Shown piece by piece: positions 19,644 to 63,840 of a DNA stretch of 64,000 nucleotides (positions within the stretch are counted from its first letter, which is position 1; the number at the start of each line of letters is the position of its first letter). The position numbers and the translations under genes are program-made. Under the pieces are notes generated by a model, which was not told the origin of the DNA, made no database searches, and was given only the letters and a program-made list of their open reading frames with translations. This stretch comes from a virus. Taxonomy: Duplodnaviria > Caudoviricetes. The stretch lies in the IMG/VR virus record IMGVR_UViG_3300011531_000019, positions 3,421-67,420 of that record; one strand, given 5' to 3'.

Positions 19644-19681
19644 GACATTCAATATCTGGCACACAGGACAAAACTGAGACA

Positions 19682-19877: not shown

Positions 19878-19923
19878 ATTCGTAATGCGAAGGTCGGAGG
19901 TTCGACTCCTCTTATCGGCACCA
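19878..19923 (+). repeat. thrW: 3' half of tRNA-Thr(CGU), variant copy; prophage attR / left boundary of island 2
   Basis: attcgtaatgcgaaggtcggaggttcgactcctcttatcggcacca; no 5' half upstream; 2 differences from the copy ending at 46561. Confidence 0.9.
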
Positions 19924-19977
19924 TAAAATCAAAAGGTTACGTAAAATCCTATCATTTCTCCACCAAAGAATATTTTG

Positions 19978-19999
19978 ATGTAACTGCTGGTGTAAGTAA
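19978..19999 (+). repeat. Probable integrase arm-type site (copy 1)
   Basis: atgtaactgctggtgtaagtaa, 21/22 identical to 46367-46388. Confidence 0.7.
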
Positions 20000-20216
20000 T
20001 TTCCATCAACGAAGATCAATCCTACATACCGACCAAAAAGGCCGGATAGGACTTCGCTCGCTATACAGCCAATGTCTGCTAATTTAGTTGTCCCTTTCTA
20101 CACCACTCCTAAATTCAATGCGTTGGCAATGTGTTCAATAAAGCTCGAACAAATTAGCTCATTATGTCGGTTAATACTTCAGCTTCTGTTTGCATGATGG
20201 TTTATCCGTAAAAAGT

Positions 20217-27364: not shown

Positions 27365-27365
27365 T

Positions 27366-35200: not shown

Positions 35201-35375
35201 CCTGCTGCGAGGTTATTGAGACAAAGTCATACCCCTGATTACGCAGGTCCTGAATCAGTTCTCGCTCCAGGTCTGATTCGCTCTGGTAGCTTTCGCCAGA
35301 ACCCTGGGTTTTCGTGAACTTATCGAGAACGATAAAGTTGTTGGATTCAGCAATGGTGTGGGTCTGTTGAGTCAT
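32259..35375 (-). CDS. hsdR: Type I restriction subunit R (EcoR124I/type IC family)
   Basis: RYDV...[12 protein letters not shown] nuclease motif, [22 protein letters not shown] helicase motifs; start [11 protein letters not shown]. Confidence 0.96.
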
Positions 35376-35497
35376 AGCGCATCCTTTGTGCCGGTAGGAC
35401 AATAACCGGCAGAGGAAGGTACAGAACTACCGGTAAGTAAACATGTCTGTGTATAACCCGACCAGCAGATGCCGGTCGGGAGGCCGTCTCATTTTCG

Positions 35498-45030: not shown

Positions 45031-46329
45031 CTAATTATCCGCCTGTTCCAATATCCAGTTCTCGATCTTCTCGTGCCACTTTCTTAGCAAATCGAGTGGG
45101 CGGCGGCGGTAGTGTTTCTCTGCGAGGGCGCTGGGTTTATGGCCTTGTATCTGTGCGACGATCCCTGTAGGTACTTCAACCCACTCAGCCAGAGTACCGA
45201 AACTGCGGCGAAGACCATGCACGCTAATGTGAGGTAATTCCGCTCGTGCTAAAGCTCGATTGTGTGCTGAACGAGGTTCAATAATTTTGCCGGTTTTGCT
45301 ATGGCTTCTGAAAACCCAGTTCTCTGTTCCTGTATCAGAGGTTGTGGCTTTCGCTAGTGTATTTAGTAAACCAGAAACATACGGGGTGAGGGGGATGATG
45401 CGTTCCCCTTCAATTTTGTCCTTAATTCGCATGCTTGACCATTTAAAATCTACATCGGCCCAGCGAAGTGATGCAATTTCTTCACGCCGTGCACCTGTTA
45501 GTAAAAGAACCTGAAGGTAGGCCGATGCAACTGGGTTATTGAGGGTACGCACGGCACTAAACCAGCTTTTTAGCTGTTCTTTTTGCAAGCAATCGCCTGC
45601 TTTACTCGCTGATATTGGAACCATTTTTCTTACGTTGTAATCTTGAGCAAGATCACCAGGGATTATTCCCTGATATTTTTTCTGGTAATTAGCCCATTTG
45701 ATGAATGCACGTAGCAAACGATAAGCATGAGCAGTCACGCTAGGTCTACTTAGTCTTTCAGTGCTCAGCCACGCGGCTATGTGATCTGGTGTTAATTCCG
45801 ACAGCAGTAGATCAAGCAAATAGGCTATTGGTCCAGGCGCGGTTGGTCCTTTGCCTCTTTTTTTGCTTTCCCCTCCACGACTGGACATGTTGATATGATC
45901 GGCAATGTATCGGGTTGAATATGGGCGTTTAGTTTTTGCACTGATACCTGTTCTCAATTCTTTAAGATAGTCTTCCCAGGCAGCTGAAAAAGTCACTTTC
46001 GTTTTACGCGATTTAGCTTGCAGCGATTCTGCTTCTGCGATTTTCTCAGCTTTAGCAATACGTGGATCTATCCCGGTATCGATCAACGTCTGCAACCGTC
46101 TTGCCTCGGTCCTCGCATCATCAATCCTCCAGTCGCTGATGTTGCCAATAGTCATGCGAAGGGTTTTTCCCGCATGTACGCTTTGGAACACAAAAGCTTT
46201 TGTTCCACTAGTCGCTCGACATGCCAATGTTGTTACGTCCGTATCCCAAAGGAAAACTTGGCTTTTCCCTTCAGGTAAAGTAAATCTTCGAATTCGTTCG
46301 AAGGTTAGTTTTTGTCTTGAAAACGCCAT
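45031..46329 (-). CDS. int: Tyrosine integrase of island 2
   Basis: Arm-binding N-domain; LLLTGARREE, HGLRRSF, GH.......HY catalytic residues; next to the att site. Confidence 0.95.
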   Translation of the reverse strand: MAFSRQKLTFERIRRFTLPEGKSQVFLWDTDVTTLACRATSGTKAFVFQSVHAGKTLRMTIGNISDWRIDDARTEARRLQTLIDTGIDPRIAKAEKIAEAESLQAKSRKTKVTFSAAWEDYLKELRTGISAKTKRPYSTRYIADHINMSSRGGESKKRGKGPTAPGPIAYLLDLLLSELTPDHIAAWLSTERLSRPSVTAHAYRLLRAFIKWANYQKKYQGIIPGDLAQDYNVRKMVPISASKAGDCLQKEQLKSWFSAVRTLNNPVASAYLQVLLLTGARREEIASLRWADVDFKWSSMRIKDKIEGERIIPLTPYVSGLLNTLAKATTSDTGTENWVFRSHSKTGKIIEPRSAHNRALARAELPHISVHGLRRSFGTLAEWVEVPTGIVAQIQGHKPSALAEKHYRRRPLDLLRKWHEKIENWILEQADN

Positions 46330-46366
46330 TTTTAGGGTTCCAATTGTGGATTACGGTTTTACAGTA

Positions 46367-46388
46367 ATGTAACGGCTGGTGTAAGTAA
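46367..46388 (+). repeat. Probable integrase arm-type site (copy 2)
   Basis: atgtaacggctggtgtaagtaa. Confidence 0.7.
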
Positions 46389-46512
46389 ATTGGAAGGATA
46401 TACATCAACACTCATCAATTTAAATCAATAGGTTTTTGTTTTAATTTTATGATTTTTAATGGTAAAGTAGTTTTTTGGGATGGTTGTTCAAACAGATAAA
46501 ATTAAAAAACTT

Positions 46513-46561
46513 CGCATTCGTAATGCGAAGGTCGTAGGTTCGACTCCTATTATCGGCACCA
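46513..46561 (+). repeat. thrW: 3' half of tRNA-Thr(CGU); attR of island 2 / attL of island 3
   Basis: cgcattcgtaatgcgaaggtcgtaggttcgactcctattatcggcacca; matches the E. coli thrW 3' half as recalled; no 5' half. Confidence 0.92.
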
Positions 46562-46674
46562 TTTCAAACTCTTCCCAAGTCTACCGTAATCAACTAAAAG
46601 CCCGTATACTGCGGTTTATGGCCCGTATTTTATCTCCTGTTATCAACTGGACTCAACCAAAATCAAGTCGCAGT

Positions 46675-46695
46675 TGGGGGCATAAGTGGGGGCAT
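46675..46695 (+). repeat. P4-family integrase arm-type direct repeat
   Basis: tgggggcat-aag-tgggggcat upstream of int. Confidence 0.65.
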
Positions 46696-46724
46696 TCTGT
46701 GTTCGGTCCAGGGAGATGCCCCCA

Positions 46725-47933
46725 ATGAAGCTTAATGCACGACAGGTAGATGCTGCTAAACCCAGAGAGAAAGCCTACAAGCTGGCAGATGGTGCTGGTT
46801 TGTATCTTGAGGTTGCTCCCTCTGGTTCCAGATACTGGCGGATGAAGTATCGCTTCAATGGAAAAGAGAAGCGTATGGCTTTTGGTGTCTATCCGGCCGT
46901 GTCCCTTGCACAAGCGAGGGCACTACGTGATCAAGCCAAGAAAAAGCTGGCCGAGGGCATCGATCCGTCTTTCGCTAAGAAAGAAGAAAAGCTGGTTCGC
47001 GATGTGCAGCTCAACAACACGTTTCAGGCTGTGGCGCTTGAATGGCACGGAACGAAGGTGAGCCGGTGGTCAGAAGGTTATGCCTCCGACATTATCGAAG
47101 CTTTCAATAAAGATATTTTCCCCTATATCGGCCAGCAGCCGGTGAATGAAATCAAACCGCTGGTTCTGCTGAATGTGCTGCGTCGAATGGAAAGTCGTGG
47201 CGCGACAGAGAAGGCCAAGAAGGTTCGCCAGCGTTGCAGTGAAGTCTTTCGTTACGCCATCGTTACCGGTCGTGCGGAATACAATCCTGCAGCGGATCTA
47301 ACCAGCGCAATGTCAGGGCATGAATCGAAGCATTATCCCTTCCTTACTGTTGAGGAGTTACCAGACTTCTTTAAAGCTCTCGCAGGCTACACAGGAAGCC
47401 CGTTAGTTGTTCTTGCCGCTCGTCTGCTGATCCTTACGGGAGTTCGTACTGGCGAGCTCCGAGGTGCTTTCTGGAGTGAATTTGATCTTGAGAAAGCGGT
47501 GTGGGAAATCCCTGCAGAGCGTATGAAGATGAAACGGCCTCACCTTGTCCCCCTCTCTACCCAAGCACTAGAGATCGTACAGCAGCTCAAAGTGATGTCT
47601 GGGCAATATCCTCTGGTGTTTCCTGGGAGGAATGATCCCCGCAAAACGATGAGCGAAGCGAGTATAAATCAGGTGTTCAAGCGGATTGGATATACGGGGA
47701 AGGTAACGGGGCATGGTTTCCGCCACACGATGAGTACGATTTTGCATGAGGAAGGGTTTAATACGGCATGGATTGAAACCCAGCTTGCGCATGTCGATAA
47801 GAATGCGATTCGCGGGACATACAACCATGCGTTGTATCTGGAAGGGCGAAGGGAGATGATGCAGTGGTATGCGGACCATATAAACGCTAATCAAAATTCA
47901 TGTATTTCTTTGCTGGTGAACGCTAGAAAGTAG
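46725..47933 (+). CDS. int: P4-like (IntS/IntA family) tyrosine integrase
   Basis: MKLNARQV..AKP.EK.YKL.DG.GLYL; TGVRTGEL, HGFRHT, QLAH, YNHA. Confidence 0.96.
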   Translation: MKLNARQVDAAKPREKAYKLADGAGLYLEVAPSGSRYWRMKYRFNGKEKRMAFGVYPAVSLAQARALRDQAKKKLAEGIDPSFAKKEEKLVRDVQLNNTFQAVALEWHGTKVSRWSEGYASDIIEAFNKDIFPYIGQQPVNEIKPLVLLNVLRRMESRGATEKAKKVRQRCSEVFRYAIVTGRAEYNPAADLTSAMSGHESKHYPFLTVEELPDFFKALAGYTGSPLVVLAARLLILTGVRTGELRGAFWSEFDLEKAVWEIPAERMKMKRPHLVPLSTQALEIVQQLKVMSGQYPLVFPGRNDPRKTMSEASINQVFKRIGYTGKVTGHGFRHTMSTILHEEGFNTAWIETQLAHVDKNAIRGTYNHALYLEGRREMMQWYADHINANQNSCISLLVNARK

Positions 47934-48174: not shown

Positions 48175-49368
48175 ATGAACAGTAACTATATGCCATTCAC
48201 ACAACGAGATAGTCTCGGAAGATACTATACAAAAGAATCCATAAGTGCATTATTGGTTTCTCAGATGAAAGCTGAAAAAGTCAATAATATTATTGATTTA
48301 GCTTCTGGTGAGGGGAGCTTAACCTATGCCGCTTTAGACCGATGGAAGAATGCAGAAGCATATTCTTTGGATATAGAATCTCGGATGTCAAAAAAAGTAT
48401 GTGATAATCTTACTCATATCGTAACAGATGCCCTTGTTCATTCATTTCCTGAAATGCTTGCCCGACATCAAGGAAATTTTGATGTTGCAGTATGTAATCC
48501 TCCATTCACACTCCCTGAATGGAGGGATGATTATTTTAAAATCATTAGTGAGATTGGGGCAGATAAATATATATCTATCTCAAAATATGTCCCAGCAGAG
48601 ATAATATTTATATCTCAAGTCATCAGGTTTCTTAAAAAGGGCGGTGAGGCTGGGATAATTTTACCTGATGGTATATTTACAGCAAGAAAATTTATAGGTT
48701 TAAGACGATATTTATTGAATGAACATTCAATTACAAAAGTCATTGAATTACCTAGGAATATCTTCAAAAGGACAGAGGCTAAAACACATATTTTGATTTT
48801 TAATAAAAAAATTGTGCCTCATCAGAAAATACAATTACATTGTATAACTAAAGATGGGGAATTGTCACCTCCTGTTTTAATTAGAAAAGAAGATGCGATT
48901 GAGAGAATGGACTACTCTTATCATTATAATAAAAATGAAGAGTTTAGCACAATTGGAATGCTTAAAAATATTTCAATTTTTAGAGGTAGGTTTAATTCAA
49001 AGGAAATTACGGAACATGTTTTTCATACGACAAAGTTTAGTGGTGATGAAAAGTTTATTAAATTCCACTGCAACTCTGTAGAAGAATTGAAGCCATCAAA
49101 ATTAGATGTTATTGCTAAGCCTGGTGATATATTAATAGCAAGGGTTGGGCGAAATTTTCATAAAAAAATATTGTTTGTTGAGAGCGGGTATTCTTATATC
49201 AGTGACTGTATTTTTCTGATACGAGCCTCTGGTGAAGATCAGAAAAAACTATTTGATTTTCTTTGTTCTCAAGATGGGCAAGAGGAATTATCTCGAGCGA
49301 GTAGTGGTGTAGCCGCACAACATATTACAATGGATGCATTAAAAAAAATACATCTTGTAAGGATTTAA
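48175..49368 (+). CDS. Compact N6-adenine DNA methyltransferase with C-terminal TRD-like region
   Basis: LGRYYT, IIDLASGEGSL (motif I), NPPF (motif IV), GIILPDG; C-terminal AKPGDILIARVG as in TRDs. Confidence 0.85.
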   Translation: MNSNYMPFTQRDSLGRYYTKESISALLVSQMKAEKVNNIIDLASGEGSLTYAALDRWKNAEAYSLDIESRMSKKVCDNLTHIVTDALVHSFPEMLARHQGNFDVAVCNPPFTLPEWRDDYFKIISEIGADKYISISKYVPAEIIFISQVIRFLKKGGEAGIILPDGIFTARKFIGLRRYLLNEHSITKVIELPRNIFKRTEAKTHILIFNKKIVPHQKIQLHCITKDGELSPPVLIRKEDAIERMDYSYHYNKNEEFSTIGMLKNISIFRGRFNSKEITEHVFHTTKFSGDEKFIKFHCNSVEELKPSKLDVIAKPGDILIARVGRNFHKKILFVESGYSYISDCIFLIRASGEDQKKLFDFLCSQDGQEELSRASSGVAAQHITMDALKKIHLVRI

Positions 49369-49369
49369 C

Positions 49370-51076
49370 ATGACTGATGTGGAATTAGATAGTAAATTTC
49401 TTGTCGAGGAACGAGCTGATTATATTGATGAGGATACGATAAAAAATAATACTATCAGATCTGGAGAGTTTTTCAATATTATACATAATGCTCTTATATC
49501 CCCAGGAATCAAACTTATAGTTGGTCCTAGGGGATGTGGTAAAACACATTTGATGCGTTATGCTTGGGTTGAATGTAAAAATGATGATAACGCACCATTA
49601 CCACTCTATGTTTCCTTTAATAAATATTTTAAGTTAGAGCCACTTTTAAAAACTAAACCTAATGCAATTGATCTCTTTCATAAATGGGTATTAGCAAAGA
49701 TACTACTCTCTGCTTATGAAATTGCTTGCGATATTGAAGATTCTGAAGATCTTGATTTGTCAACGATACTCATAGCGGATAAAGAGTTCCTGATTAATTT
49801 AATCGTAAGGCTTGAGCAGGGTCTTTCGCCATCATTAGAACAAGAAAACATTGTTCAATTGATCAGTGTTTCTTCTGTCATATCCTCGTTGAGTTCACTA
49901 TGCGATTGGCTTGAACGTAAAAGAGTCATTATTTTATTAGACGATGCTGCAATAAGCTTAACTCCTGAATATCTTTACGAGTTTTTTGATATTGTACGTA
50001 GTCTAAAAACCTCAAAAATAGCTTTAAAGGCATCGGTTTATCCTGGAACAACCGAATATGGCCCAAGGTTTCATGTTGCTCATGATGCTGAAACAATTGA
50101 TGCTTGGATTTCGGTACAGCACCCTAATTATTCCTCAGTGATGGATGCTATAGCGCAGGCAAGGTTTCCTGGGTATGATGGCATTCCGGATGACTTGAAA
50201 GAGTTATTTAAATTTTCAGCATTTGGAATTCCACGTTCTTTTTTGATGATGTTAAGGGATTGTCAAACAACTTTAAGTCAGACAACTCAGCAAAAATTCA
50301 ATAAAATAATTGAAAAGTATGTTGAGCTTAGACTCAGCGAATACAGTTCACTAAAAGATAAGCTACCTCGATTGTTTGACATTGTTTCATTAGGTGAATC
50401 ACTTTTATTAAAAGTAGTCGAATTACTCAAGGAAAGTAACTCCCAATATAAAGAAGAGAAACAAGTCATAATCGGTATAGAGAAAAATGATAATGTTTAT
50501 TTTTCTCGACTCACTAAACTATTAATTGAAACAGGGCTTTTTTATAATCTTCCTGATATTTCTCATGGTGATGGGCGTACTTATGAAAGATATATACCTC
50601 ATTATGCTTTATTGATAAAGGAAAGAGTGTTTAACGAAGGAAGTAGAGGTTTTTCTCCCTCTCAGATTATTCAGAAAATACTAAGAAAGAATGCTAAGCA
50701 TCCTGTCAGAAGAAACATTTCATCATTATTCAATACTGAGCAACTTGCGAGGCTTAAACTAACTTTACCTCCATGCAATAACTGCAAGACTCCGCGATTG
50801 ACTGACAATCAAAAATTTTGCCACCATTGTGGGAACCAATTGATTGATGAGTCGGCCTATAATCAGTGCATGTCTATTCCACTTTCAAAAGTACCACATC
50901 TAACATCTTGGCAAATGCAAAAACTATCTGGGCTGGAAAAAGTAAAAACTATAGGAGATGTATTGTCTTTACAAGACCCAGGGAGTGAGTTAAGAAAAAT
51001 TCACAGAATAGGACCCAAAATTGCCAATAAAATTATGGACAAAGTGTTATTACATGTTGAAGAATTTTTGTCTTAA
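49370..51076 (+). CDS. AAA+/ORC-CDC6-like ATPase with C-terminal Zn ribbon and HhH-like tail
   Basis: GPRGCGKT, IILLDD, FGIPRSF; CNNC...FCHHCG; LRKIHRIGPKIANKI. Confidence 0.75.
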   Translation: MTDVELDSKFLVEERADYIDEDTIKNNTIRSGEFFNIIHNALISPGIKLIVGPRGCGKTHLMRYAWVECKNDDNAPLPLYVSFNKYFKLEPLLKTKPNAIDLFHKWVLAKILLSAYEIACDIEDSEDLDLSTILIADKEFLINLIVRLEQGLSPSLEQENIVQLISVSSVISSLSSLCDWLERKRVIILLDDAAISLTPEYLYEFFDIVRSLKTSKIALKASVYPGTTEYGPRFHVAHDAETIDAWISVQHPNYSSVMDAIAQARFPGYDGIPDDLKELFKFSAFGIPRSFLMMLRDCQTTLSQTTQQKFNKIIEKYVELRLSEYSSLKDKLPRLFDIVSLGESLLLKVVELLKESNSQYKEEKQVIIGIEKNDNVYFSRLTKLLIETGLFYNLPDISHGDGRTYERYIPHYALLIKERVFNEGSRGFSPSQIIQKILRKNAKHPVRRNISSLFNTEQLARLKLTLPPCNNCKTPRLTDNQKFCHHCGNQLIDESAYNQCMSIPLSKVPHLTSWQMQKLSGLEKVKTIGDVLSLQDPGSELRKIHRIGPKIANKIMDKVLLHVEEFLS

Positions 51077-51146
51077 TTTTGATGGCATTTACTTGTCAAT
51101 CGTGTCTTTCTTATCTGAAAAGTTTAATTTAAAAAGAGTCGGGAAA

Positions 51147-52139
51147 ATGGAACTAGAATCAAAAGAGGATTATGAAGAGACCACTCATCATAATGTGGCG
51201 TCCTCAGTTGTTACTGCAACTCATGATAACTTAGATGGAAGAGAGTTTTTTGAACTATGTAGTAATCCAGCTCTAGTTTTTTCGTTTGAGACACACAAAA
51301 AATTTAATGAGTTACCTGTTGATAGCAAGGAATCCCCGTTAGATCTTTTTATAGCTAATACAAAGCAACTTCACTTGTTAAGATCTGTTGATATTTCAAA
51401 CACATTAAGCCATCTGTTGTTATTAGGCTATGTGTCGGCAGCCGAAAGTTATTTGCGAGCTCTTATCAGGAATCTAATTAATCATGATGAATATATTCAG
51501 TCTATAGTTTGTGATAAGGCCGTTAGTTATGCAGCGGCACAACATCATAAAAAGGAGTTATTACCAGAAGCTTTACTTGAGGACTTTTCATTGGCAAGCC
51601 CTTATAATGTTTTTGAAACATTAAAGGACATTATTGGAATGAAAGGACAAAGACCAATCGAAATGATGAAATGCTCAAGCGAATTCATGAAAGTTTGTGA
51701 GTTAAGGCATTGTTGTGTTCATCGATTTGGTAAGTTGGGTTCGAAAAATGCAATCCGACTAGGATTGGCTGAACATATGAAGCACTTAGAAAAACCGATA
51801 ATACTCAATAATGATGATCTCGAGCAAATCGCATTTATTGTAGAGAATTTTATTAGAACTTTGAATAACACCGTTTTCAAATTTATAATTAATCGTACAG
51901 TTGAGAACAAAAATAAGGAAAAAGGAGGGGAAAGACTATATGATTCTGAATGGACATGGGTGTTTGAAAAAGATATAAGTCGATTCGAAAAGTATTATGC
52001 AATATTTAGTGCTAAAAACGATACCCTTCCCGGATTATCATTACAGGATTCATATCAACTTTTTGTTAATGCGTATAAGCCTAAACCTCCTGCAAGAAAA
52101 AATAAAAAAACTGTAAAAGTTAACGACCCTACTATCTGA
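51147..52139 (+). CDS. HEPN-domain protein (putative RNase)
   Basis: VSAAESYLR helix and R-x4-H motif RHCCVH; start taken at MELESK. Confidence 0.72.
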   Translation: MELESKEDYEETTHHNVASSVVTATHDNLDGREFFELCSNPALVFSFETHKKFNELPVDSKESPLDLFIANTKQLHLLRSVDISNTLSHLLLLGYVSAAESYLRALIRNLINHDEYIQSIVCDKAVSYAAAQHHKKELLPEALLEDFSLASPYNVFETLKDIIGMKGQRPIEMMKCSSEFMKVCELRHCCVHRFGKLGSKNAIRLGLAEHMKHLEKPIILNNDDLEQIAFIVENFIRTLNNTVFKFIINRTVENKNKEKGGERLYDSEWTWVFEKDISRFEKYYAIFSAKNDTLPGLSLQDSYQLFVNAYKPKPPARKNKKTVKVNDPTI

Positions 52140-53513: not shown

Positions 53514-53864
53514 ATGTCACTAACTTCCCTACATCTCTTCAAAAACCTCTCCGATGAAACCCGTCTAGGGATCGTACTGCTGCTCAGAGAGATGGGAGAG
53601 CTGTGCGTGTGCGATCTCTGTACAGCGCTGGATCAGTCGCAGCCCAAGATCTCCCGCCATCTGGCAATGCTCCGGGAAAGCGGTCTATTGCTGGATCGCA
53701 AGCAGGGGAAATGGGTTCATTATCGCTTATCCCCGCATATTCCATCCTGGGCTGCTCAGGTGATTGAGCAAGCCTGGTTAAGCCAACAGGACGACGTACA
53801 GGCCATCGCCCGTAAGCTGGCATCGGCAAACTGCTCTGGTAGCGGTAAGGCTGTTTGCATCTAA
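53514..53864 (+). CDS. arsR: Arsenite-responsive repressor
   Basis: ELCVCDL, SQPKISRHL. Confidence 0.97.
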   Translation: MSLTSLHLFKNLSDETRLGIVLLLREMGELCVCDLCTALDQSQPKISRHLAMLRESGLLLDRKQGKWVHYRLSPHIPSWAAQVIEQAWLSQQDDVQAIARKLASANCSGSGKAVCI

Positions 53865-53911
53865 AAAATTTGCCTGAACATATATGTTTTTCCAAATGTG
53901 AGGTATTCAGA

Positions 53912-54274
53912 ATGAAGACGTTAACGGTGTTTGACCCGGCAATGTGCTGCAGTACCGGCGTATGTGGCTCAGATGTCGATCAGGTTCTGGTTGATTTTTT
54001 TGCTGATGTGCAGTGGCTGAAAGGACGTGGTGTACAGGTTGAACGTTACAACCTGGCGCAGCAGCCCATGAGCTTTGTTCAGAATGAGAAAGCGAAAGCA
54101 TTCCTCGAAGCATCTGGAGCAGAAGGGCTTCCGTTACTGCTGTTGGACGGTGAAACGGTGATGGCAGGGCGATACCCAAAACGCGCTGAGTTGGCTCGCT
54201 GGTTCGGTATACCGCTGGAGAAGGTAGGTTTAGCTCCCACCAGCTGCTGTGGTGGTAATACTTCCTGTTGCTGA
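53912..54274 (+). CDS. arsD: Arsenite metallochaperone
   Basis: FDPAMCCSTGVCG; terminal CC pairs. Confidence 0.96.
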   Translation: MKTLTVFDPAMCCSTGVCGSDVDQVLVDFFADVQWLKGRGVQVERYNLAQQPMSFVQNEKAKAFLEASGAEGLPLLLLDGETVMAGRYPKRAELARWFGIPLEKVGLAPTSCCGGNTSCC

Positions 54275-54291
54275 GTATGTCAGGAGGACAT

Positions 54292-56043
54292 ATGAAATTC
54301 TTACAGAATATCCCGCCTTACCTGTTTTTTACCGGTAAGGGAGGTGTAGGAAAAACTTCTATTTCCTGCGCGACGGCAATCCGCCTTGCCGAACAGGGTA
54401 AGCGGGTTTTGCTTGTCAGTACCGATCCAGCCTCCAATGTCGGCCAGGTATTCGATCAGGCTATCGGTAACACCATTCGCCCTGTGGCAGCAGTTCCTGG
54501 ACTTTCCGCTCTGGAAATCGACCCGCAGGAAGCCGCCAAACAATACCGCTCCAGAATCGTTGATCCTATCAAAGGTCTTTTGCCTGATGACGTTGTTAAT
54601 AGTATCAGCGAGCAACTTTCAGGAGCCTGTACCACTGAGATTGCGGCGTTTGATGAGTTCACCGGCTTATTGACAGACGCTTCCCTGCTGACCCGCTTCG
54701 ATCACATCATTTTTGATACAGCGCCGACGGGCCACACGATTCGCCTTCTCCAGCTTCCCGGTGCCTGGAGTAGCTTCATTGAAAGTAATCCAGATGGTGC
54801 TTCCTGTCTTGGCCCAATGGCCGGGCTGGAAAAGCAGCGTGAGCAGTATGCTCATGCAGTAGAGGCGTTATCCGATCCTGAACGTACCCGCCTGGTTCTG
54901 GTTGCACGACTGCAAAAATCTACGCTGCAGGAAGTCGCCCGCACCCATGAAGAACTCGCCGCAATTGGCCTGAAAAACCAATACCTGGTGATTAATGGTG
55001 TGCTGCCTAAAGCCGAAGCTGAACATGACGCCCTGGCCGCTGCGATATGGCAACGTGAGCAGGAGGCACTGGCAAATCTTCCTCCCGGTTTATCTGGGCT
55101 ACCGACAGATACCCTATTACTACAGCCAGTCAATATGGTTGGTGTTTCAGCATTGAAGGGACTGCTGGATACCGGTTCTGAGGCATTACCGCTCCCGGTA
55201 ACGAACATCCAGTACACGCCTGAAAACTTATCGCTCTCTGGCCTGGTCAATGATATCGCTCGCAGTGAACACGGCCTGATTATGCTGATGGGCAAAGGTG
55301 GCGTAGGGAAAACCACAATGGCTGCTGCCATCGCCGTAAGGCTGGCAGACATGGGATTTGACGTGCATCTCACGACCTCTGATCCTGCTGCGCACCTGAG
55401 TACAACGCTCAATGGCAGCCTCAAGAATCTGCAGGTCAGCCGAATCAACCCTCACGATGAAACTGAACGCTATCGTCAGCATGTTCTTGAGACGAAAGGC
55501 AGGGCTCTGGATGAGGCTGGGAAACGGCTGCTCGAAGAGGATTTACGTTCTCCTTGCACAGAAGAGATTGCGGTGTTCCAGGCGTTCTCACGCGTAATCC
55601 GTGAAGCAGGCAAACGGTTTGTAGTCATGGATACGGCACCTACCGGACATACGCTATTACTGCTTGATGCTACCGGGGCTTATCACCGTGAGATTGCCAA
55701 GAAGATGGGGGATAAAGGTCATTTTACCACTCCGATGATGCAGCTTCAGGACCCGGAACGCACCAAAGTCCTGCTGGTCACTCTGCCTGAAACCACACCG
55801 GTACTGGAAGCGGCAAACCTGCAGGCTGACCTTGAAAGAGCGGGGATTCATCCGTGGGGCTGGATTATCAATAACAGCCTTTCCATTGCGGATACGCGTT
55901 CTCCGTTGCTTTGCCAGCGCGCTCGTCAGGAACTGCCTCAGATTGAGGCTGTTAAGAATCAGCACTCTAACCGTATAGCGCTTGTTCCGGTGCTGGCGTC
56001 AGAGCCCGCTGGTATTGAAAAGCTCAGAGAGTTGATGAGTTAA
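54292..56043 (+). CDS. arsA: Arsenical pump-driving ATPase
   Basis: Two GKGGVGKT and two DTAPTGH motifs. Confidence 0.97.
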
Positions 56044-56090
56044 TTTTGTTGCATATACAGGGCGGCAAAGTCGCCCTGTCAGGAGGTTTT

Positions 56091-57380
56091 ATGTTACTGG
56101 CAGGCGCTATTTTTGTCCTGACCATTGTTTTGGTTATCTGGCAACCAAAGGGATTAGGGATCGGCTGGAGTGCAATGCTGGGCGCGGGACTGGCTCTGAT
56201 ATCTGGCGTTGTGCATGTGGGCGATATTCCGGTGGTGTGGAATATCGTCTGGAACGCGACGGCGACCTTTATTGCCGTAATTATTATCAGCCTGCTGCTT
56301 GATGAGTCCGGCTTTTTCGAATGGGCAGCGCTGCACGTTTCCCGCTGGGGTAACGGTCGTGGACGTTTGCTCTTTACGTATATCGTTCTGCTCGGTGCGG
56401 CGGTGGCGGCACTGTTTGCCAACGATGGTGCGGCACTTATTCTGACGCCGATAGTCATCGCCATGCTGCTGGCATTAGGGTTCAGCAAAGGCACCACGCT
56501 GGCATTCGTCATGGCTGCCGGTTTTATTGCCGATACAGCCAGCCTGCCGCTTATCGTGTCGAACCTGGTGAATATAGTCTCGGCGGACTTCTTTGGACTG
56601 GGCTTCACTGAGTATGCGTCGGTAATGGTGCCGGTGGATATTGCCGCTATTATCGCCACGCTGGTGATGCTGCATCTGTTCTTCCGCAAAGATATTCCAC
56701 CGACTTACGACCTGGCTCTCCTGAAAGCACCGGCAAAGGCAATTAAAGATCTGGCAACCTTCAGGACCGGCTGGATAGTTTTAATTCTTCTGCTGGTTGG
56801 GTTCTTTGTCCTCGAGCCGCTCGGTATTCCCGTTAGCGCGATTGCGGCTGTTGGAGCTGTGATCCTGTTTGTAGTAGCTAAACGAGGCTACGCTATTAAC
56901 ACCGGTAAAGTACTGCGTGGGGCACCCTGGCAGATCGTCATCTTCTCATTGGGGATGTACCTGGTGGTCTACGGTCTACGCAACGCCGGGCTAACCGAAT
57001 ACCTTTCAGGTGTGCTGAACGTACTGGCGGATAAAGGACTCTGGGCCGCGACGCTGGGTACTGGCTTCCTGACGGCTTTCCTGTCTTCCATCATGAACAA
57101 CATGCCTACCGTGCTGGTTGGCGCTCTCTCTATTGATGGCAGTACTGCAACTGGCGTTATTAAAGAGGCGATGATCTACGCCAACGTGATTGGCTGCGAT
57201 CTGGGCCCGAAAATTACACCTATTGGTAGCCTGGCAACGCTGCTCTGGCTGCATGCACTTTCACAGAAGAATATGACCATCACCTGGGGATATTATTTCC
57301 GCACCGGGATCGTCATGACTCTGCCTGTGCTGTTTGTAACGCTGGCCGCGCTGGCGCTACGTCTCTCTTTCACTTTGTAA
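56091..57380 (+). CDS. arsB: Arsenite efflux permease
   Basis: [26 protein letters not shown]; [13 protein letters not shown]; multiple TM helices. Confidence 0.97.
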
Positions 57381-57392
57381 TGAGATACTGAT

Positions 57393-57818
57393 ATGAGCAA
57401 CATCACCATCTATCACAACCCGGCCTGCGGCACGTCGCGTAATACGCTGGAGATGATCCGCAACAGCGGTAATGAACCGACCGTTATTCATTACCTTGAA
57501 AATCCACCGTCACGCGATGAGTTGGTCAAACTTATCGCAGATATGGGGATTACAGTACGGGCGCTGCTGCGTAAAAATGTCGAGCCTTATGAAGAACTGG
57601 GGCTTGCCGAGGACAAGTTTACTGACGATCAGTTAATCGATTTTATGCTTCAGCATCCGATCCTGATTAACCGCCCGATTGTGGTGACACCGTTGGGAAC
57701 GCGCCTTTGCCGCCCTTCCGAAGTAGTACTGGATATTCTTCCGGATGCGCAAAAAGGCGCATTTGCTAAGGAAGACGGCGAGAAAGTTGTTGATGATGCA
57801 GGTAAACGACTGAAATAA
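57393..57818 (+). CDS. arsC: Glutaredoxin-dependent arsenate reductase
   Basis: HNPACGTSR, ILINRPIV, LCRPSE. Confidence 0.97.
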   Translation: MSNITIYHNPACGTSRNTLEMIRNSGNEPTVIHYLENPPSRDELVKLIADMGITVRALLRKNVEPYEELGLAEDKFTDDQLIDFMLQHPILINRPIVVTPLGTRLCRPSEVVLDILPDAQKGAFAKEDGEKVVDDAGKRLK

Positions 57819-57823: not shown

Positions 57824-57843
57824 AAGGGGGCAAATGCCCCCTT
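57824..57843 (+). terminator. Hairpin terminator after arsC
   Basis: aagggggca-aa-tgccccctt. Confidence 0.6.
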
Positions 57844-58007: not shown

Positions 58008-60530
58008 TTATGCAACAGCAGATAATGAAACCGATGTATCAAGCTGATCGACCAATTCGCAGATTTGCGATTGTTCATAGCTCAGGACCGGTCGTTGCTT
58101 AACCACACTTACTACAAGTGGTTTAATCAGCATATTGGCCGTTGCTCGGTCTTGCTCTTTTGCGGCGAAGATAACCTCCAGGGTTTTTTGGTCAATTACT
58201 GTTGCCAGATTCGCGTTCAGGTTTTCAAGTTCGTGTTCTGTAAGCATGAAACTTGTTGCAAGCCATGTAACCTGTTCCTGGATGAGAGCCAGCACTTTTA
58301 CTCGGTCGTCTTCAACCAGTGCACCCGCTATTTTTTTGGAAATAGCTGTGGCAATCATACCGCCTAACAAGCCACCAGCTGCGCGTCCTGCTAAAGCACC
58401 GAAAGGACCTAATGGACTAAGCATCATTCCGCCAGCAATAGAACCAATTGCACCCCCAGCCACACCAGATGAAGTAACTGCCAGATTTTTTATAAACTGT
58501 GCCCCAGAAATACGACCTCGCACCATTTTGATCATATCCGGACCAGTGGTCACGGCGACCAGTGCGAAAGAGGTAACCAGTGTGCCACGCATCATCTTGT
58601 TAAGGGAGTTGAGATTGTTAGCTCCGACTCCCTGTTGAAGCGCATTACGAACTGTCGGGCTGGCAGCGGCAAAATCAATATTTTTAAGTAACCCCTGAAC
58701 GGCACTGATACGGTGTAATTGCTGTACCGTCACATAAACTGTCAGTGTGCGGGTAAATGTTTTACCTGCCTGTATTGCTGCCGTTTGCAACGCAGCCTTA
58801 CGATCGCCGGTATTGAGGTAGAAAATAGAAGCTGTCAGACCGAAGCTGATACCTCCAGCTGCGAGGCTGATGATAGATCCTTCCGCAATGTCGTAAGTGA
58901 TAGATTCGAACGTGCCAAACTTAGTAATGTTTTGTGCCTGGCTATAAGTCAGGTGTCCCTGACGTACAAGTTTTGTGGCTTCTGCAGGATCGGTAACGCC
59001 GGGGACTTTGCCATCGCGAATTTTGTTCTCCATCGTTTCAAGCGCTTTCGAATACTGGTCTTTCGGAACCTCTAACTGCATTGGGGTTCCGTTACTGTCA
59101 TAATAGCGATAATTACCGTTTTGTCCGTCAAAACCAGCACCGACGCTACGTGCAGCGGTTGCACAGTATTTGGTCTGAATCTCTGAACCGTTAACCAGCC
59201 TGTCTGCACCATTTTTCGCATTATCATCACCGAGAATATGTGCATCTTTTAGTTGGATTTTGTCAGTAAGATGATTTCCCCGTTCGGCTGCAAAACCATG
59301 TCCTTGTCCTCCCACTGCAAACATTTTTTCGTTAGTATTCCAGGCCTCCGGGAGTGTCATGAGGATCAGACCGTTTGTTGCTGCACTGGAAATAAATTCA
59401 GCCTGTGGTCGCTTGTGAATTTCAATGCAGAGTTTTTCCGTTTCCCGGCAAATATCAGAGCAATACCATTCCTGGCTCCCACCACCGCCCTGGTGTTTTG
59501 CGTTTTTAATCTCGCTCAAACCGCATGAAGTGCAGGTACAAAGCTCGTCGACATAGTGAAACGAGACAAATTTTCGACCATCCGAAAAAGAATAATAGTT
59601 CCCACCATCAAGATAACGGTTCAGGAGATCATCATTCGCAGCAGAGGGTAAATTCAGCCTATTACCAAAAAGGCTTCTTAGCTCATCTGATGAGTGTACT
59701 ATTTTACTGTTTAACTGCTCATTAAATTCAGCCATCTTTCTTTCATACCAGGCATCATTTAAAAGCCAGTTTTCACCAGCCAGATCCTGCTCTCGAGTAT
59801 CGCCCTGAAAAATATGCTGTGAGACCAACTTGAGATAGATAGTCTCTACGAATTCTGCTGAGAGGTTACTTCCTTCTTTTAGTTCCGTCAGCCAAAGTTT
59901 GTTATTGATCGCTTTTTGCTCATTTAACCCTGTATTGATGGCATTAGTTAACTTCTTGAGTTCCTGAATTTGGTTTGCCGCATAGAACTGTGTCAGTAAG
60001 GCTGCTATCCAGTATAGCAATCCTGTCCACCACATCAGTGAAGATGATATATTATATTGCCAGGCTATAAACGGTGTAGCCGCAGAGCAGGCCATCAAAA
60101 AGTAAGACGCATAAAAACAGCAATAATACTCTTTAAGTTTGGCATTGATATCGGCTGGTATAAGCCCGTTTTGTAGAATAGCCTTGGTTTGTACAGGTAC
60201 TGCAAGCAGGCCACTGGCAAATGCAGCGGTTAAAATAAACTTCATTGAATCAAATGAATAAGCTTCGTAGGCAATATGTTTACCATCAAGTCCCCACATA
60301 AAGCTAATCACCATTCCTGCTATGGCAAGAGGTACACCCAGCAGCCAACGTGAGTGAAGCGCATAGGTTACGCGCTCTACAATATAGCCCGCCAATAAAG
60401 GTGGGCCTGCAACAATCAATGCACCCAATCCTAATATCACACCTAGAATATTGAGAGATGCCTTAAACAACGCTTTTATAATAACAAAACCGATTACCAG
60501 TAAAATTAACGCACCAATTATCTGTAGCAT
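58008..60530 (-). CDS. yeeR: Long YeeR-family inner membrane protein (TM region, Cys cluster, D..QxK domain, Gly-rich helices)
   Basis: N-terminal ~500 aa closely match E. coli K-12 YeeR as recalled (MLQI.GALILL, SFMWGLDGKHIA, GGQGHGFAAERGNH, EIQTKYC). Confidence 0.75.
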   Translation of the reverse strand: MLQIIGALILLVIGFVIIKALFKASLNILGVILGLGALIVAGPPLLAGYIVERVTYALHSRWLLGVPLAIAGMVISFMWGLDGKHIAYEAYSFDSMKFILTAAFASGLLAVPVQTKAILQNGLIPADINAKLKEYYCCFYASYFLMACSAATPFIAWQYNISSSLMWWTGLLYWIAALLTQFYAANQIQELKKLTNAINTGLNEQKAINNKLWLTELKEGSNLSAEFVETIYLKLVSQHIFQGDTREQDLAGENWLLNDAWYERKMAEFNEQLNSKIVHSSDELRSLFGNRLNLPSAANDDLLNRYLDGGNYYSFSDGRKFVSFHYVDELCTCTSCGLSEIKNAKHQGGGGSQEWYCSDICRETEKLCIEIHKRPQAEFISSAATNGLILMTLPEAWNTNEKMFAVGGQGHGFAAERGNHLTDKIQLKDAHILGDDNAKNGADRLVNGSEIQTKYCATAARSVGAGFDGQNGNYRYYDSNGTPMQLEVPKDQYSKALETMENKIRDGKVPGVTDPAEATKLVRQGHLTYSQAQNITKFGTFESITYDIAEGSIISLAAGGISFGLTASIFYLNTGDRKAALQTAAIQAGKTFTRTLTVYVTVQQLHRISAVQGLLKNIDFAAASPTVRNALQQGVGANNLNSLNKMMRGTLVTSFALVAVTTGPDMIKMVRGRISGAQFIKNLAVTSSGVAGGAIGSIAGGMMLSPLGPFGALAGRAAGGLLGGMIATAISKKIAGALVEDDRVKVLALIQEQVTWLATSFMLTEHELENLNANLATVIDQKTLEVIFAAKEQDRATANMLIKPLVVSVVKQRPVLSYEQSQICELVDQLDTSVSLSAVA

Positions 60531-60566
60531 TGTGGTTTTATCCTTGCTGTAATTTTTATTCGAGTG

Positions 60567-62012
60567 CTACGCCATCATAAATGTGTCAAGATCATCCGCA
60601 TTTTTGATTATCTTCACCTCTTCAACACCGTGGGCCTGGGCAAGCGTGATGCTTGCTTCCAGCAACCGGCGATTGTTTTCCACGCTAAATGCAGCTGCGG
60701 TAAGCTCACCCAGCGCCGCGAACTCGTTCAAAATTCGGTTGAGTGCTTTCTGCTCAATCTCACTTAAGCGACATGTAAATTGCTCCATTTTTTTCGCCAG
60801 CAATTGGCGTGCTTTACTGTCCAGATTTTTAGCTACGGTAACCATAAACTTCCCTGAGATAGAACCAACCAATGCCCCCAAAACAGGCACAGGGATGATT
60901 GCCTGACCTGCGACAGACATTGCGCCAACGATGGCCGATTCCGCGCAGATGATAAGGCCAAGATCGGTAAATTCATCAGCATTAATCTCACCGCGCTGAT
61001 AGGAGAGAGCAAGATTGCTTACACCTTTAGCGGCAGTGACCAGCGCGCTGGCGAACGGTGCTCCCAGAGAGGCATAATTGGTCAGGGTATAAATTGCTCC
61101 GGCGGATACACCGCCAATAGCGGCACCTTTCAATGTATCTAAGCCGACATCCTGCCAGTCCTGTCTGTTGAAATCTCCACGAAATATATTTTTACCATCA
61201 CGGTATTTGCTATATATACCTGTTACAAGAGCAAAGGTTCCACCGAAAGCGGCTCCCATTGCGGTTGCACGCATGCCTTCACTTAGGGAGGGTTGGTGAT
61301 TGTCAATAATTTCTGCTTTTTTTGCCTCGTTCTGTTCCGCTAATTCCTGATCATGTTTATCAAGCGTTTCGTCAATTTTTCCCCACTGAACATCTTTGTA
61401 ATCAGAAACTCCAGAACGCACGATATCATTAAAGGATCTTCCCGTTGTACTTTCAATTTCTGCAACTTTATCCCTGATAGCCTGTATTGTTTTTTCGCTC
61501 AAGCCCTCCACCGGCTTCCCATCAATAACATTCTGAATCGTTTGCCAGGAGTCTTTGGGGATATGGTAAAAGGATTCTCCCTGGGTAAAATTGGGATAGG
61601 TTTCCATGTGCTGAAGGACATGGTTCAGGTTATTATTAACTCCGTTGATAAACTTTGACTGCACGTCAACGCCATCTATCATATAATCCGCCGGAGCGGT
61701 TCGACCCACTCCGTCAAACGTGGCGCTAAGATCAGAGGCATCCTGAACCCTTTCTTCTATTGCCTGGCGAGCATTGCGCACGCCAACTTCTACCTGCTCA
61801 GCAATTTCACCGTGTTTGGTGCTCATTGAGCCCAGGATGTTACCCGGTGACGCGATGAAATCACGCACCTTTTGCATTTGTTCGCCAGCCAACTCAAATG
61901 CACGCTCCTGCTGCGATAGTTTTAACAGTTCACTATCAATGCGGGTCTGATTAATGGCGTTAACCGCGCTGCCGATAAGCTGGTCGCCAACTGTATTATG
62001 GTTAATGCTCAT
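60567..62012 (-). CDS. Hypothetical protein: coiled coil, D..QxK nuclease-like domain, glycine-zipper helices
   Basis: HGEIAE..PADYMIDGVDVQSKF; GAAFGGTFALVTG, GAAIGGVSAG, GALVGSISG. Confidence 0.75.
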   Translation of the reverse strand: MSINHNTVGDQLIGSAVNAINQTRIDSELLKLSQQERAFELAGEQMQKVRDFIASPGNILGSMSTKHGEIAEQVEVGVRNARQAIEERVQDASDLSATFDGVGRTAPADYMIDGVDVQSKFINGVNNNLNHVLQHMETYPNFTQGESFYHIPKDSWQTIQNVIDGKPVEGLSEKTIQAIRDKVAEIESTTGRSFNDIVRSGVSDYKDVQWGKIDETLDKHDQELAEQNEAKKAEIIDNHQPSLSEGMRATAMGAAFGGTFALVTGIYSKYRDGKNIFRGDFNRQDWQDVGLDTLKGAAIGGVSAGAIYTLTNYASLGAPFASALVTAAKGVSNLALSYQRGEINADEFTDLGLIICAESAIVGAMSVAGQAIIPVPVLGALVGSISGKFMVTVAKNLDSKARQLLAKKMEQFTCRLSEIEQKALNRILNEFAALGELTAAAFSVENNRRLLEASITLAQAHGVEEVKIIKNADDLDTFMMA

Positions 62013-62857
62013 TACTGGATTTTCTTGTTGATCAGTTTTGATAATGCATTGATATGGTTAATCAATGCCCCTAATTGATCTTTCTGATGGGTATTAAACT
62101 GGCAATAGTCTTGAGGCGCAGCCTTTTCCAGCACATCAATAATGCTTTCAGTACCATGATAGTGCTCGGATGTGAGCATCTTGAGTTCTTGCGCACCACG
62201 TTCCATCACGCGAAGTTCGCTGGTTTTTGCGCGAACCTGGCGCTCTTCCTGTTGTGCCTCATCAATGATTTTACCGTTTTTGCGACGGGCTAGTAGGGTT
62301 CCGCCAGCGATGCCTACAGCACCAATTCCCCAGCCTATTGGACCCGCCAGAGCCAGTAGTGCGCTTCCTGCTGACATGCCACCGCCACCCGCAGCCAGTG
62401 CGCCGCCGCCGAGCCATGCCAGGGCTGCATTTGTTGCGGCAGCTCCGCTTAACGTAGCAATAGCGGTACCCGTGGATGCTGTACCAAAAGTTGTTGCGAC
62501 CGCCAGCGCAGCCGTAGGGGCAAATGCGGCGACCCCCGCCCCAACGGCAACCCCCGCAGCAGCCGTTCCTTTACCAATATGTGATGCGCGGTATTCTTCT
62601 TCCAGTTTTTCCACCACGTTATCAAATTCAGCGATTTCCGCTTTCAATTCGCTCCAGGATTTATCAAACTCTTTCGGTGTATTCGCCAGTCGATTAACAA
62701 AATTTTCACCACGGGCAATCAGATCCTTACTGCATTTCTGGCGTAACAGAAAGAGGGCAGTGATCTCATCCTGGGTGTCTTTAGCCTGTACTTCATAACG
62801 GTTAGTTGCACTTTTGAGACTGGCTAATGCTTCTTTTCTTTCTGAACCACGTAACAT
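62012..62857 (-). CDS. Hypothetical protein: coiled coils around a long Ala/Gly hydrophobic hairpin
   Basis: GTASTGTAIATLSGAAATNAALAWLGGGALAAGGGGMSAG; TAATG stop/start overlap with the next gene. Confidence 0.8.
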   Translation of the reverse strand: MLRGSERKEALASLKSATNRYEVQAKDTQDEITALFLLRQKCSKDLIARGENFVNRLANTPKEFDKSWSELKAEIAEFDNVVEKLEEEYRASHIGKGTAAAGVAVGAGVAAFAPTAALAVATTFGTASTGTAIATLSGAAATNAALAWLGGGALAAGGGGMSAGSALLALAGPIGWGIGAVGIAGGTLLARRKNGKIIDEAQQEERQVRAKTSELRVMERGAQELKMLTSEHYHGTESIIDVLEKAAPQDYCQFNTHQKDQLGALINHINALSKLINKKIQ

Positions 62858-62891
62858 TTTTTACTCCTGCTGTATGTTGTCAAAAATAATT

Positions 62892-63770
62892 TCACTGCAA
62901 TGGGTTTTTCATTTCTATTATCTGCTGGTTGAGCTTCTGATAAAAACGTTGTTGTAGACTAATCGGGGAAATAATAGTGAGGTTTGGTAACCAATAACGT
63001 AATAATGGAAATAGCTGGTTTTCGTGTGCCATTTTGGTTTGCACGATCAAGTCGCCATTAGGTTCCTGACGAATTAACTTTTGGGCAGGCAGAACATTTC
63101 GACGTTTAAAAAAATGGCTTACGTCGGCTGAAATTTTAAGGAGTACAATCTGCTTATCCAAAGAAAACCAGACATCATCTTCTTCAGCAAAGTATTGTGT
63201 GATATGGGGTTGTGGTGTGAAGTGCTCTGATTTAAATTTCAGCCAATGAATTTTGGTGAGCTGGAATCCTTTAACCTTTTCATTCTCTACCGCACCGAGA
63301 TACCAGACGCTCTTTATGTTAATAAGCTTATAAGGCGCGACGGTCCGATGTTTCCCTTTATAATGAAATTCACAAAGGCTATTTTCACGAATCGCTTTAT
63401 CGAACACACTATAGTTATTCTCAAGTACGCGTTTCGCTTCTGGATCTCCGGGCAGCGATCTGATGATCAGTGAAGTCATGTCAGGCTGGGAGAAGATTTT
63501 TTTTACAGGGAATAACTCTGCCATCCCCAGGGCATTGATGAGATTTTGTTGTTCTTTTAGAGCCTGAGGTTTAGCGTAAGCGGGAGCCAGCCTGTAAATA
63601 CCATCACCATCGGGGACGATTCTGTCGCCCAGACGATTAAGATCACGATACAAAGTACGCTCACTGATGTTGAATTCGTCCATCATCTTCTTACGTGATA
63701 CAAAACCGTACTGGTAAAGTTCTGCAATAATAGCGGTTATTCTTTGTACCATTACCTCATGCCCGCTCAT
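62892..63770 (-). CDS. HTH-WYL-WCX transcriptional regulator
   Basis: EFNISERTLYRDL; VAPYKL.....WYLGA; RGFQL.KI-like and W.PNL.IISP C-terminal motifs; AAGGAG RBS. Confidence 0.9.
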   Translation of the reverse strand: MSGHEVMVQRITAIIAELYQYGFVSRKKMMDEFNISERTLYRDLNRLGDRIVPDGDGIYRLAPAYAKPQALKEQQNLINALGMAELFPVKKIFSQPDMTSLIIRSLPGDPEAKRVLENNYSVFDKAIRENSLCEFHYKGKHRTVAPYKLINIKSVWYLGAVENEKVKGFQLTKIHWLKFKSEHFTPQPHITQYFAEEDDVWFSLDKQIVLLKISADVSHFFKRRNVLPAQKLIRQEPNGDLIVQTKMAHENQLFPLLRYWLPNLTIISPISLQQRFYQKLNQQIIEMKNPLQ

Positions 63771-63803
63771 GCGCGTTCTCCTTGTAATTTTTCCTTGAGA
63801 TTA

Positions 63804-63840
63804 CCAGTCGCTACTGACAGGGCATGTCAGTAGCGACTGG
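63804..63840. promoter_or_regulatory. Perfect 16-bp inverted repeat, candidate WYL operator
   Basis: ccagtcgctactgaca-gggca-tgtcagtagcgactgg, 34-70 bp upstream of the WYL start. Confidence 0.65.

Follow-up and report, generated by a model that had tools for sequence, protein, structure and literature searches.

A WYL-headed PDC-M09 gene pair homologous to the Dionysus defence system, followed by a full-length yeeR, in an IMG/VR virus record

Dionysus of Pseudomonas aeruginosa comprises three proteins. DinA consists of a soluble 'MAEBL-like' domain and a membrane domain, DinB is TerB-like, and DinC resembles alpha-pore-forming toxins and has four membrane segments (bioRxiv 10.1101/2025.09.30.679545). 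The system gave more than 10^6-fold protection against phiKZ-type jumbo phages, for which all three genes were needed. The host membrane was not permeabilised, and DinA and DinC formed foci at the early phage infection vesicles. DinC was predicted to form a complex with DinA's C-terminus and was likened structurally to Hbl, Nhe and ClyA (bioRxiv 10.1101/2025.09.30.679545). The PDC systems are a set of 145 candidates, picked for lying within loci of BREX, DISARM or type I restriction-modification (Payne et al., bioRxiv 10.1101/2024.01.29.577857). Here, a locus with homology to both was analysed in a window of 64,000 nucleotides, positions 3,421 to 67,420 of the 67-kb IMG/VR record IMGVR_UViG_3300011531_000019. 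The locus holds a gene for a WYL regulator, followed by three genes termed A, B and C. It is read as three separate units that adjoin each other on an integrative island: the WYL regulator, a PDC-M09 module formed by A and B, and a full-length YeeR encoded by C. The likeliest function, put forward with moderate confidence, is that of a repressor-controlled, membrane-acting anti-phage module.

A and B were identified with PADLOC models. A matched PDC-M09A (PDLC04407) with an E-value of 2.4e-120, residues 1-280 aligning to positions 1-280 of the 282 in the model. B matched PDC-M09B (PDLC04409) with 1.2e-211, residues 2-480 aligning to positions 2-479 of 480. At 90% identity, over 7,600 clusters made up the A family, and at 50% identity the B family had 937 (E-values up to 0.001); every member of both families was annotated as hypothetical.

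The link to Dionysus was made through a Pseudomonadaceae locus (L108), in which a WYL gene is followed by genes for proteins of 531, 214 and 342 amino acids (aa) matching the published DioA, DioB and DioC (Table S1, bioRxiv 10.1101/2025.09.30.679545). The authors of that study applied a hidden Markov model threshold of 200 bits; the links drawn here rest on BLASTP, profile and PADLOC model comparisons. The DinC orthologue (P0363) was found by the A profile at 1e-24, by the PDC-M09A model at 3.2e-24 and by BLASTP with A at 6e-12, with 59% identity over the hydrophobic core. The DinA orthologue (P0362) was found by the B profile at 2e-12, by the PDC-M09B model at 1.4e-16 and by BLASTP with B at 3e-7 over 348 aa, with 22% identity. 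C matched the same protein with a BLASTP E-value of 0.002 over 340 aa. These comparisons make A a homologue of DinC, and B as well as C homologues of DinA. PDC-M09 is thus related to Dionysus but has no TerB-like component, and its genes stand in the reverse order. A search of 401 Pseudomonadaceae genomes with the A profile returned five proper PDC-M09A matches and, among 14 weaker matches, nine A-like proteins (about 1e-17 to 1e-25); L108 is one of the loci of these nine. Another Pseudomonadaceae locus (L110:4733-9027) carried a WYL gene, an A-like protein of 366 aa (PDC-M09A model, 5.5e-22) and a 544-aa protein matching PDC-M40B (9e-28), so that the A-type module combines with different partners.

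Both proteins of the pair have long predicted helices and hydrophobic segments. In A, residues 97-190 form a 94-residue uncharged Gly/Ala-rich segment that was nearly invariant from Enterobacterales to cyanobacteria and has the length for about four membrane helices. In the AlphaFold model, the long flanking helices pack as a four-helix bundle, and the hydrophobic middle has a predicted local distance difference test (pLDDT) score below 50. B has uncharged Gly/Ala-rich segments at residues 249-268, 296-328 and 359-387, and its C-terminal membrane domain has hydrophobic helices of the Gly-zipper type. Its residues from about 20 to 240 were modelled confidently as an alpha/beta domain, in which helix 67-86 is followed by strands 110-112 and 115-119, then by helix 125-138 and strand 148-151. 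Among 20 B homologues, K66, H67, G68, E69, E72, E75, R104, D109, Q118, K120 and the motif HIPKD were invariant, and the signature HGEIAE ... D109 ... Q118-x-K120 was present in all 20. Pfam scans of 20 homologues each of A, B and C gave only weak matches to membrane or Gly-zipper families (DUF3482, SLATT_fungal, Romo1, C19orf12 and DUF6861), and sequence and profile searches of the PDB with A, B and C gave nothing significant.

Synteny was scanned with one genome per species; 245 relatives of B were found and the best 80 loci examined. In about 75 of these, the gene immediately upstream of B was A, and the exceptions were mostly cut contigs. The A-B loci spanned Pseudomonadota, Cyanobacteria, Bacillota, Actinomycetota and Fusobacteria, the last on a Fusobacterium plasmid. 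Clustering of all neighbours revealed no universal third gene beside A-B and only lineage-specific synteny, within Microcoleus. Two natural single-ORF fusions (ORF, open reading frame) of an A-like N-terminal part with a full B were found, P0446 (876 aa, L117:175-2805) and P0470 (758 aa, L118:4001-6277), which argues that A and B act together. In P0470, the A-like part has a degenerate hydrophobic insert. The neighbours of this second fusion were considered as A-like proteins and rejected, as none was A-like. Outside the loci with a WYL gene, the upstream genes were heterogeneous, with XRE-type helix-turn-helix (HTH) genes in two of 35 loci, dynamin-family GTPase genes in another two of the 35, and others. 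The two GTPases, from Magnetospirillum and Insolitispirillum (alphaproteobacterial; L016:1677-3863 and L033:4773-6965), are about 730 aa long (Dynamin_N, best 2.4e-11) and encoded on the same strand, 161 bp before A-B. Together with a weak LeoBC match on A, these neighbours hint at a link to dynamin-type defence. On IncFIB plasmids of Klebsiella, A and B occur alone, with the ATGA overlap, and A-B homologues were found on 46 Klebsiella plasmid records. On the K. michiganensis IncFIB plasmid NZ_CP056137.1 (L120), A-B lies a few kb from a terBCDE tellurite-resistance cluster; Dionysus needs a TerB-like protein.

The homologues of C bear the UniRef name 'Inner membrane protein YeeR' and the domain PF27347 (YeeR_C), which was assigned in precomputed annotation to the identical protein cluster (P0241) and to nearly all C homologues. 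YeeR of Escherichia coli K-12 (510 aa; b2001, in the CP4-44 cryptic prophage) showed 63% identity to C over residues 1-509 only. Since the alignment ends at residue 509, the K-12 protein lacks the C-terminal 330 residues that hold the Gly-zipper membrane region; K-12 yeeR has been described as truncated (PMC6480617). In C this region spans residues 547-739, with uncharged Gly/Ala-rich segments at 551-575 and 682-715. Comparison of 20 homologues showed a polytopic, poorly conserved N-terminus (residues 1-190), an invariant cysteine cluster (C333, C336, C357, C361 and C368), which is a putative zinc ribbon, and a conserved B/DinA-like domain at about residues 400-500 with HGFAAE, D443, Q452-T-K454-Y and EVPKDQY. 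The signature of this domain was invariant in all 20 YeeR sequences.

Only three of the 80 loci had an intact C beside A-B. One is from Enterobacter sp. R1 and is identical to the window, another is from Cedecea, and the third is from an Enterobacter metagenome-assembled genome (MAG). In Yersinia proxima and Serratia (L005 and L009), C was truncated or internally deleted, and in E. soli (L007) it was absent; A-B was intact in each of them. Solitary full-length YeeR genes were located beside RES-Xre in Pseudomonas, and beside HicAB and a TIR protein in Methylomonas; the Aliarcobacter copy adjoins a type I restriction-modification system on a mobile element. The gene upstream of this copy, 283 aa long, was checked as a possible A-like partner and was not A-like. 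Because C occurs alone elsewhere and has decayed or is absent beside intact A-B, it is probably a separate single-gene module, carried downstream of PDC-M09 in this lineage.

B and C are distant paralogues. Their direct comparison was not significant in BLASTP and gave an E-value of 0.0016 and 16% probability in hhalign. The kinship is supported by the PDC-M09B models, which touch C at 5e-5 over the membrane region, by three motifs common to the B and YeeR families in the same order in all members compared, by the DinA orthologue that matches both, and by a language-model search in which clusters resembling B carry YeeR_C. The signature E ... D ... QxK was also found in two DinA orthologues.

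The regulator contains the Pfam domains HTH_DeoR (residues 10-47, 5e-5), WYL (123-174, 5e-6) and WCX (209-279, 5e-5), each at or above its cut-off. PADLOC WYL models matched it at 5e-20 and 2e-19, and its E. coli copy is labelled 'WYL domain-containing protein' in RefSeq. Sequence and profile searches of the PDB found no solved WYL regulator with detectable similarity. A WYL gene was present upstream of A-B only in Enterobacterales loci and, more distantly, in Crenothrix. The inverted repeat upstream of the gene ends 33 nt before the start codon. Its core, CTGACA-N5-TGTCAG, was kept 33-39 nt before the WYL start in the Enterobacter, Cedecea, Yersinia and Serratia loci, whose WYL proteins are 74-92% identical, and changes in the outer arms were compensated, for example a G>A paired with a C>T in locus L003. 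The Crenothrix locus has a weaker version of the repeat. The positional conservation of the core and the compensated arm changes are good indirect evidence for the operator of a dimeric HTH protein, and the repeat is probably the operator of the WYL regulator. A separate promoter for A-B, and perhaps C, is possible in the gap between WYL and A, where a promoter-like site was found; the scan gave no more sites than in shuffled sequence, so that this site is weak evidence.

Table 1. Features of the locus and its surroundings, with positions in the 64,000-nt window.
Feature	Position	Strand	Details
Myovirus-type prophage late genes	1-20000		Portal, head protease, tail sheath, tape measure, baseplate, tail fibre
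Lamassu-like cluster	25457-30952		996-aa protein matches PADLOC LmuB (1.8e-74)
Complete type I restriction-modification operon	32259-38322	minus	HsdR 1047 aa, HsdS 423 aa, HsdM 518 aa
DUF3987 primase/helicase-like gene	42280-43968		Left of the integrase pair
Two tyrosine-integrase genes	45031-47933	opposite	Back to back
Type II N6-methyltransferase region	48175-52139		PADLOC MTase_II 8e-228; ~34% G+C
GC-rich hairpin	57824-57843		Between arsC and C, whose ends converge; T tracts on both strands; pattern match
C, full-length YeeR-family protein	58008-60530	minus	840 aa ORF
B, PDC-M09B, DinA-like	60567-62012	minus	481 aa ORF
A, PDC-M09A, DinC-like helical-bundle protein	62012-62857	minus	281 aa ORF
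Promoter-like site	62856-62883	minus	TTGACA-16 nt-AAAAAT; WYL-A gap; 10/12 positions
WYL regulator gene	62892-63770	minus	292 aa ORF
Inverted repeat	63804-63840		Arms 63804-63819 and 63825-63840, 16 nt each, 5-nt spacer, 100% complementary

An earlier interpretation, made from the letters of the DNA alone (the sequence-only reading), had described the layout of the locus, and most of this description held. The four ORFs and their spacing were confirmed: the genes follow each other on the minus strand in the order WYL, A, B, C, with a gap of 34 bp between WYL and A, a 1-nt overlap of A and B (ATGA) and a gap of 36 bp between B and C (Table 1). The WYL regulator at the head of the locus was borne out by its HTH, WYL and WCX domains, the Gly/Ala-rich hydrophobic segments claimed for all three cargo proteins were found in A, B and C, and the YeeR named among them is C, by its identity to the K-12 protein. 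The 'perfect 16-bp palindrome' is upstream as stated, with fully complementary arms of 16 nt, but it is an inverted repeat with a 5-nt spacer.

The first 20 kb of the window hold the myovirus-type late genes, which explains why the record was filed as viral. The four-gene locus lies about 36 kb past these genes, on the far side of the two integrases, and is probably part of a neighbouring island and not of the prophage. No tRNA gene was found between the back-to-back integrases, suggesting that two integrative elements abut here. Upstream of the LmuB-like gene are ORFs of 635 and 199 aa, and the 635-aa protein weakly matched LmuA (8e-6). The methyltransferase gene is followed by an ORF for a 568-aa protein, whose ORC/CDC6-like match in Pfam is weak and short (4.5e-10 over 30 residues), and by an unassigned ORF of 372 aa; this region may hold a defence module, perhaps an uncommon one of the restriction type. 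The ORFs at 53855-57818 were taken as a putative ars operon, for which the annotation of the E. coli copies backs arsC only. The hairpin that follows is a pattern match and is the probable end of the transcription unit. Among 5,426 complete E. coli genomes, six hold at least 80% of the 6.2-kb region. The E. coli copies of all four genes are situated inside a tRNA-Thr island, adjoining a SIR2 gene.

We infer an anti-phage role from the surrounding defence island, from the place of A-B among the PADLOC candidates and from their homology to Dionysus. In the proposed mechanism, the WYL protein would bind CTGACA-N5-TGTCAG in its own promoter and, as BrxR, CapW and DriD suggest by analogy, keep expression of the genes downstream low until a signal is received. 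A would be a cytoplasmic four-helix bundle with a Gly/Ala-rich insertion that forms about four membrane helices. B would be anchored in the membrane by its Gly-zipper domain and expose a cytoplasmic alpha/beta domain with the residues E...D...QxK. The two proteins would act as a complex: B would detect or process a cue from the phage, and A would disturb a membrane, either the host inner membrane, leading to abortive infection, or membranes made by the phage, as reported for Dionysus. YeeR, as a paralogue of B and DinA with its own N-terminal membrane domain and putative zinc ribbon, would be an independent module picked up by the enterobacterial lineage.

Other readings of the locus were weighed against this one. 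It is quite unlikely that A, B and C form one multi-component pore under WYL control, like Hbl, Nhe, AhlABC and SmhABC, and that the four genes are a single system. The genes share a strand and are tightly spaced, B and C have a common signature and a Gly-zipper region, all four genes recur in six E. coli genomes, and all are kept in Enterobacter sp. R1, Cedecea and the Enterobacter MAG, with identities of 78-92% for WYL, 91-97% for A, 80-94% for B and 84-98% for C. However, about 72 of the 75 A-B loci lack C, as do the plasmid copies, and C has decayed in Yersinia proxima and Serratia, where A-B is intact. Full-length YeeR is solitary in Pseudomonas, Methylomonas and Aliarcobacter; in E. coli it comes after flu. 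No third gene recurred across the loci. The four-gene system proposed by the sequence-only reading is thus not borne out as one conserved unit: only A-B was syntenic across phyla, the WYL gene was largely confined to Enterobacterales and C was intact in three of 80 loci. The tripartite ClyA/Hbl-type pore and the nucleic-acid cleavage were not confirmed either: family matches to such toxins were below threshold, fold matches to them were within noise, and no nuclease was recovered. Nor is the system new, because A-B is PADLOC PDC-M09 and related to Dionysus DinC/DinA. A match to a described candidate system was thus found, and C and the WYL gene were not syntenic across phyla, whereas A-B was. 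The outline of a regulated, membrane-acting defence module agrees with the island setting, the PADLOC models and the Dionysus homology, although its novelty and its extent were misjudged.

A membrane-tethered nuclease of the PD-(D/E)xK type was also considered, in which B, and separately YeeR, would cut incoming phage or plasmid DNA at the inner membrane and A would be a membrane partner or regulator instead of a pore former. The motif called nuclease-like in two proteins by the sequence-only reading is a real signature of B and C: all 20 B and all 20 YeeR sequences have a helix with E, then D, then Q-x-K-[F/Y], as do two DinA orthologues, and the order of the elements in the B model, read from the model, is that of the restriction-endonuclease core. 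No nuclease family or structure was recovered, though, in Pfam, PDB sequence and profile, or whole-model fold searches, and Q takes the place of the usual acidic residue of (D/E)xK. Dionysus was reported to act on phage vesicles, not by DNA cleavage, and its sole DinA mutant, H326A, lost protection partly, H326 lying outside the E...D...QxK signature (bioRxiv 10.1101/2025.09.30.679545). A nuclease is for these reasons unlikely. A non-immune role of A-B, as a membrane-remodelling or envelope-stress module or as a pair of alpha-pore-forming toxins exported for competition or virulence like XaxAB/YaxAB, would account for the weak resemblance that A bears to XaxA (NCBIfam, 1e-4), to MakA and NheB (PDB, E-value of about 0.2) and to PADLOC LeoBC (2.8e-5), for the weak DUF3482 matches of eight of the 20 B homologues and for the dynamin-family GTPases directly upstream of A-B in the two alphaproteobacterial loci. 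The XaxA model (NF033928, alpha-xenorhabdolysin subunit A) scored A at only 21.6 bits, against a cut-off of 125, no Pfam toxin family was matched at E-values up to 0.1, and the structural matches of A to alpha-pore-forming toxins were within noise. A, B and C have no evident signal peptide at their start and no secretion genes nearby. The distribution is patchy and mobile-element-borne, beside restriction-modification, Lamassu and SIR2 genes, and the closest tested relative, Dionysus, works inside the cell against phage. A role outside immunity is accordingly very unlikely. It would be a long shot to extend the model so that PDC-M09B, DinA and YeeR belong to a single superfamily, whose members are tethered to the membrane, serve as sensors or enzymes and share a domain like that of restriction endonucleases. 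They would sense or cut phage nucleic acid at the membrane and switch on a Gly-zipper pore former of the DinC/A type, with one A serving both B and YeeR in this enterobacterial operon, and YeeR acting as an immune receptor.

Several observations weigh against the preferred reading, a repressor-controlled anti-phage pair beside an independent YeeR. C is tightly spaced and has diverged to a similar degree in three lineages, so that it may be functionally linked to A-B. Nothing nuclease-like surfaced for the soluble domain of B, which was searched as part of the whole model. A TerB-like DinB was found neither in the window (tblastn with orthologue P0361, best E-value 3.3) nor in the 80 PDC-M09 loci, and the 1-nt overlap leaves no room for it between A and B. 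The gene order of Dionysus is reversed relative to A before B here; with DinB absent as well, the mechanism may differ from that of Dionysus. The sole full-text mention of PDC-M09 found in the literature treats the pair as a candidate. Repression of the downstream genes by the WYL protein, and the inducing signal, are drawn from analogy.

PDC-M09 is widespread, from Enterobacterales to cyanobacteria and Bacillota, and is carried on clinical Klebsiella plasmids. The analysis ties this pair and yeeR, a K-12 gene without assigned function, to the validated Dionysus system and gives candidate residues. If A-B defends without a TerB-like component, it would show the minimal engine of Dionysus. The copy in the window, which is intact and has a regulator and a clear operator, is a convenient construct.

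Among known systems, the ClyA superfamily (ClyA, XaxAB/YaxAB, Hbl/Nhe, AhlABC/SmhABC and MakA) combines a helical bundle with an inserted hydrophobic hairpin, which is the layout of A, and the weak matches fall over that region. The LeoBC model of the PADLOC 'Dynamins' (LeoA/LeoBC) weakly matched the hydrophobic region of A and, at 1.6e-6, another A-like protein, whereas the GTPase is absent from the locus here and the similarity is confined to compositionally biased Gly/Ala-rich membrane hairpins. The yeeR of E. coli islands comes after flu and is co-transcribed with irmA, whereas C follows PDC-M09 here. The WYL defence regulators BrxR, CapW and DriD have the same domain order as the regulator of this locus (HTH, WYL, WCX), and they likewise head defence-type operons with an inverted-repeat operator in their own promoter. 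Dionysus is specific to jumbo phages in Pseudomonas, and A is about 60 residues shorter than DinC, with a strong match only in the hydrophobic core. A DinC-like A with about four predicted membrane segments and a DinA-like B with a soluble and a membrane domain are both present, and the Dionysus locus L108 is headed by a WYL regulator, as is the locus here. The pair corresponds to PDC-M09 of PADLOC-DB v2, both of whose proteins were matched nearly end to end, A then B. PDC-M09 is defined as two genes, to which this locus adds a WYL gene with a conserved operator before the pair and YeeR after it.

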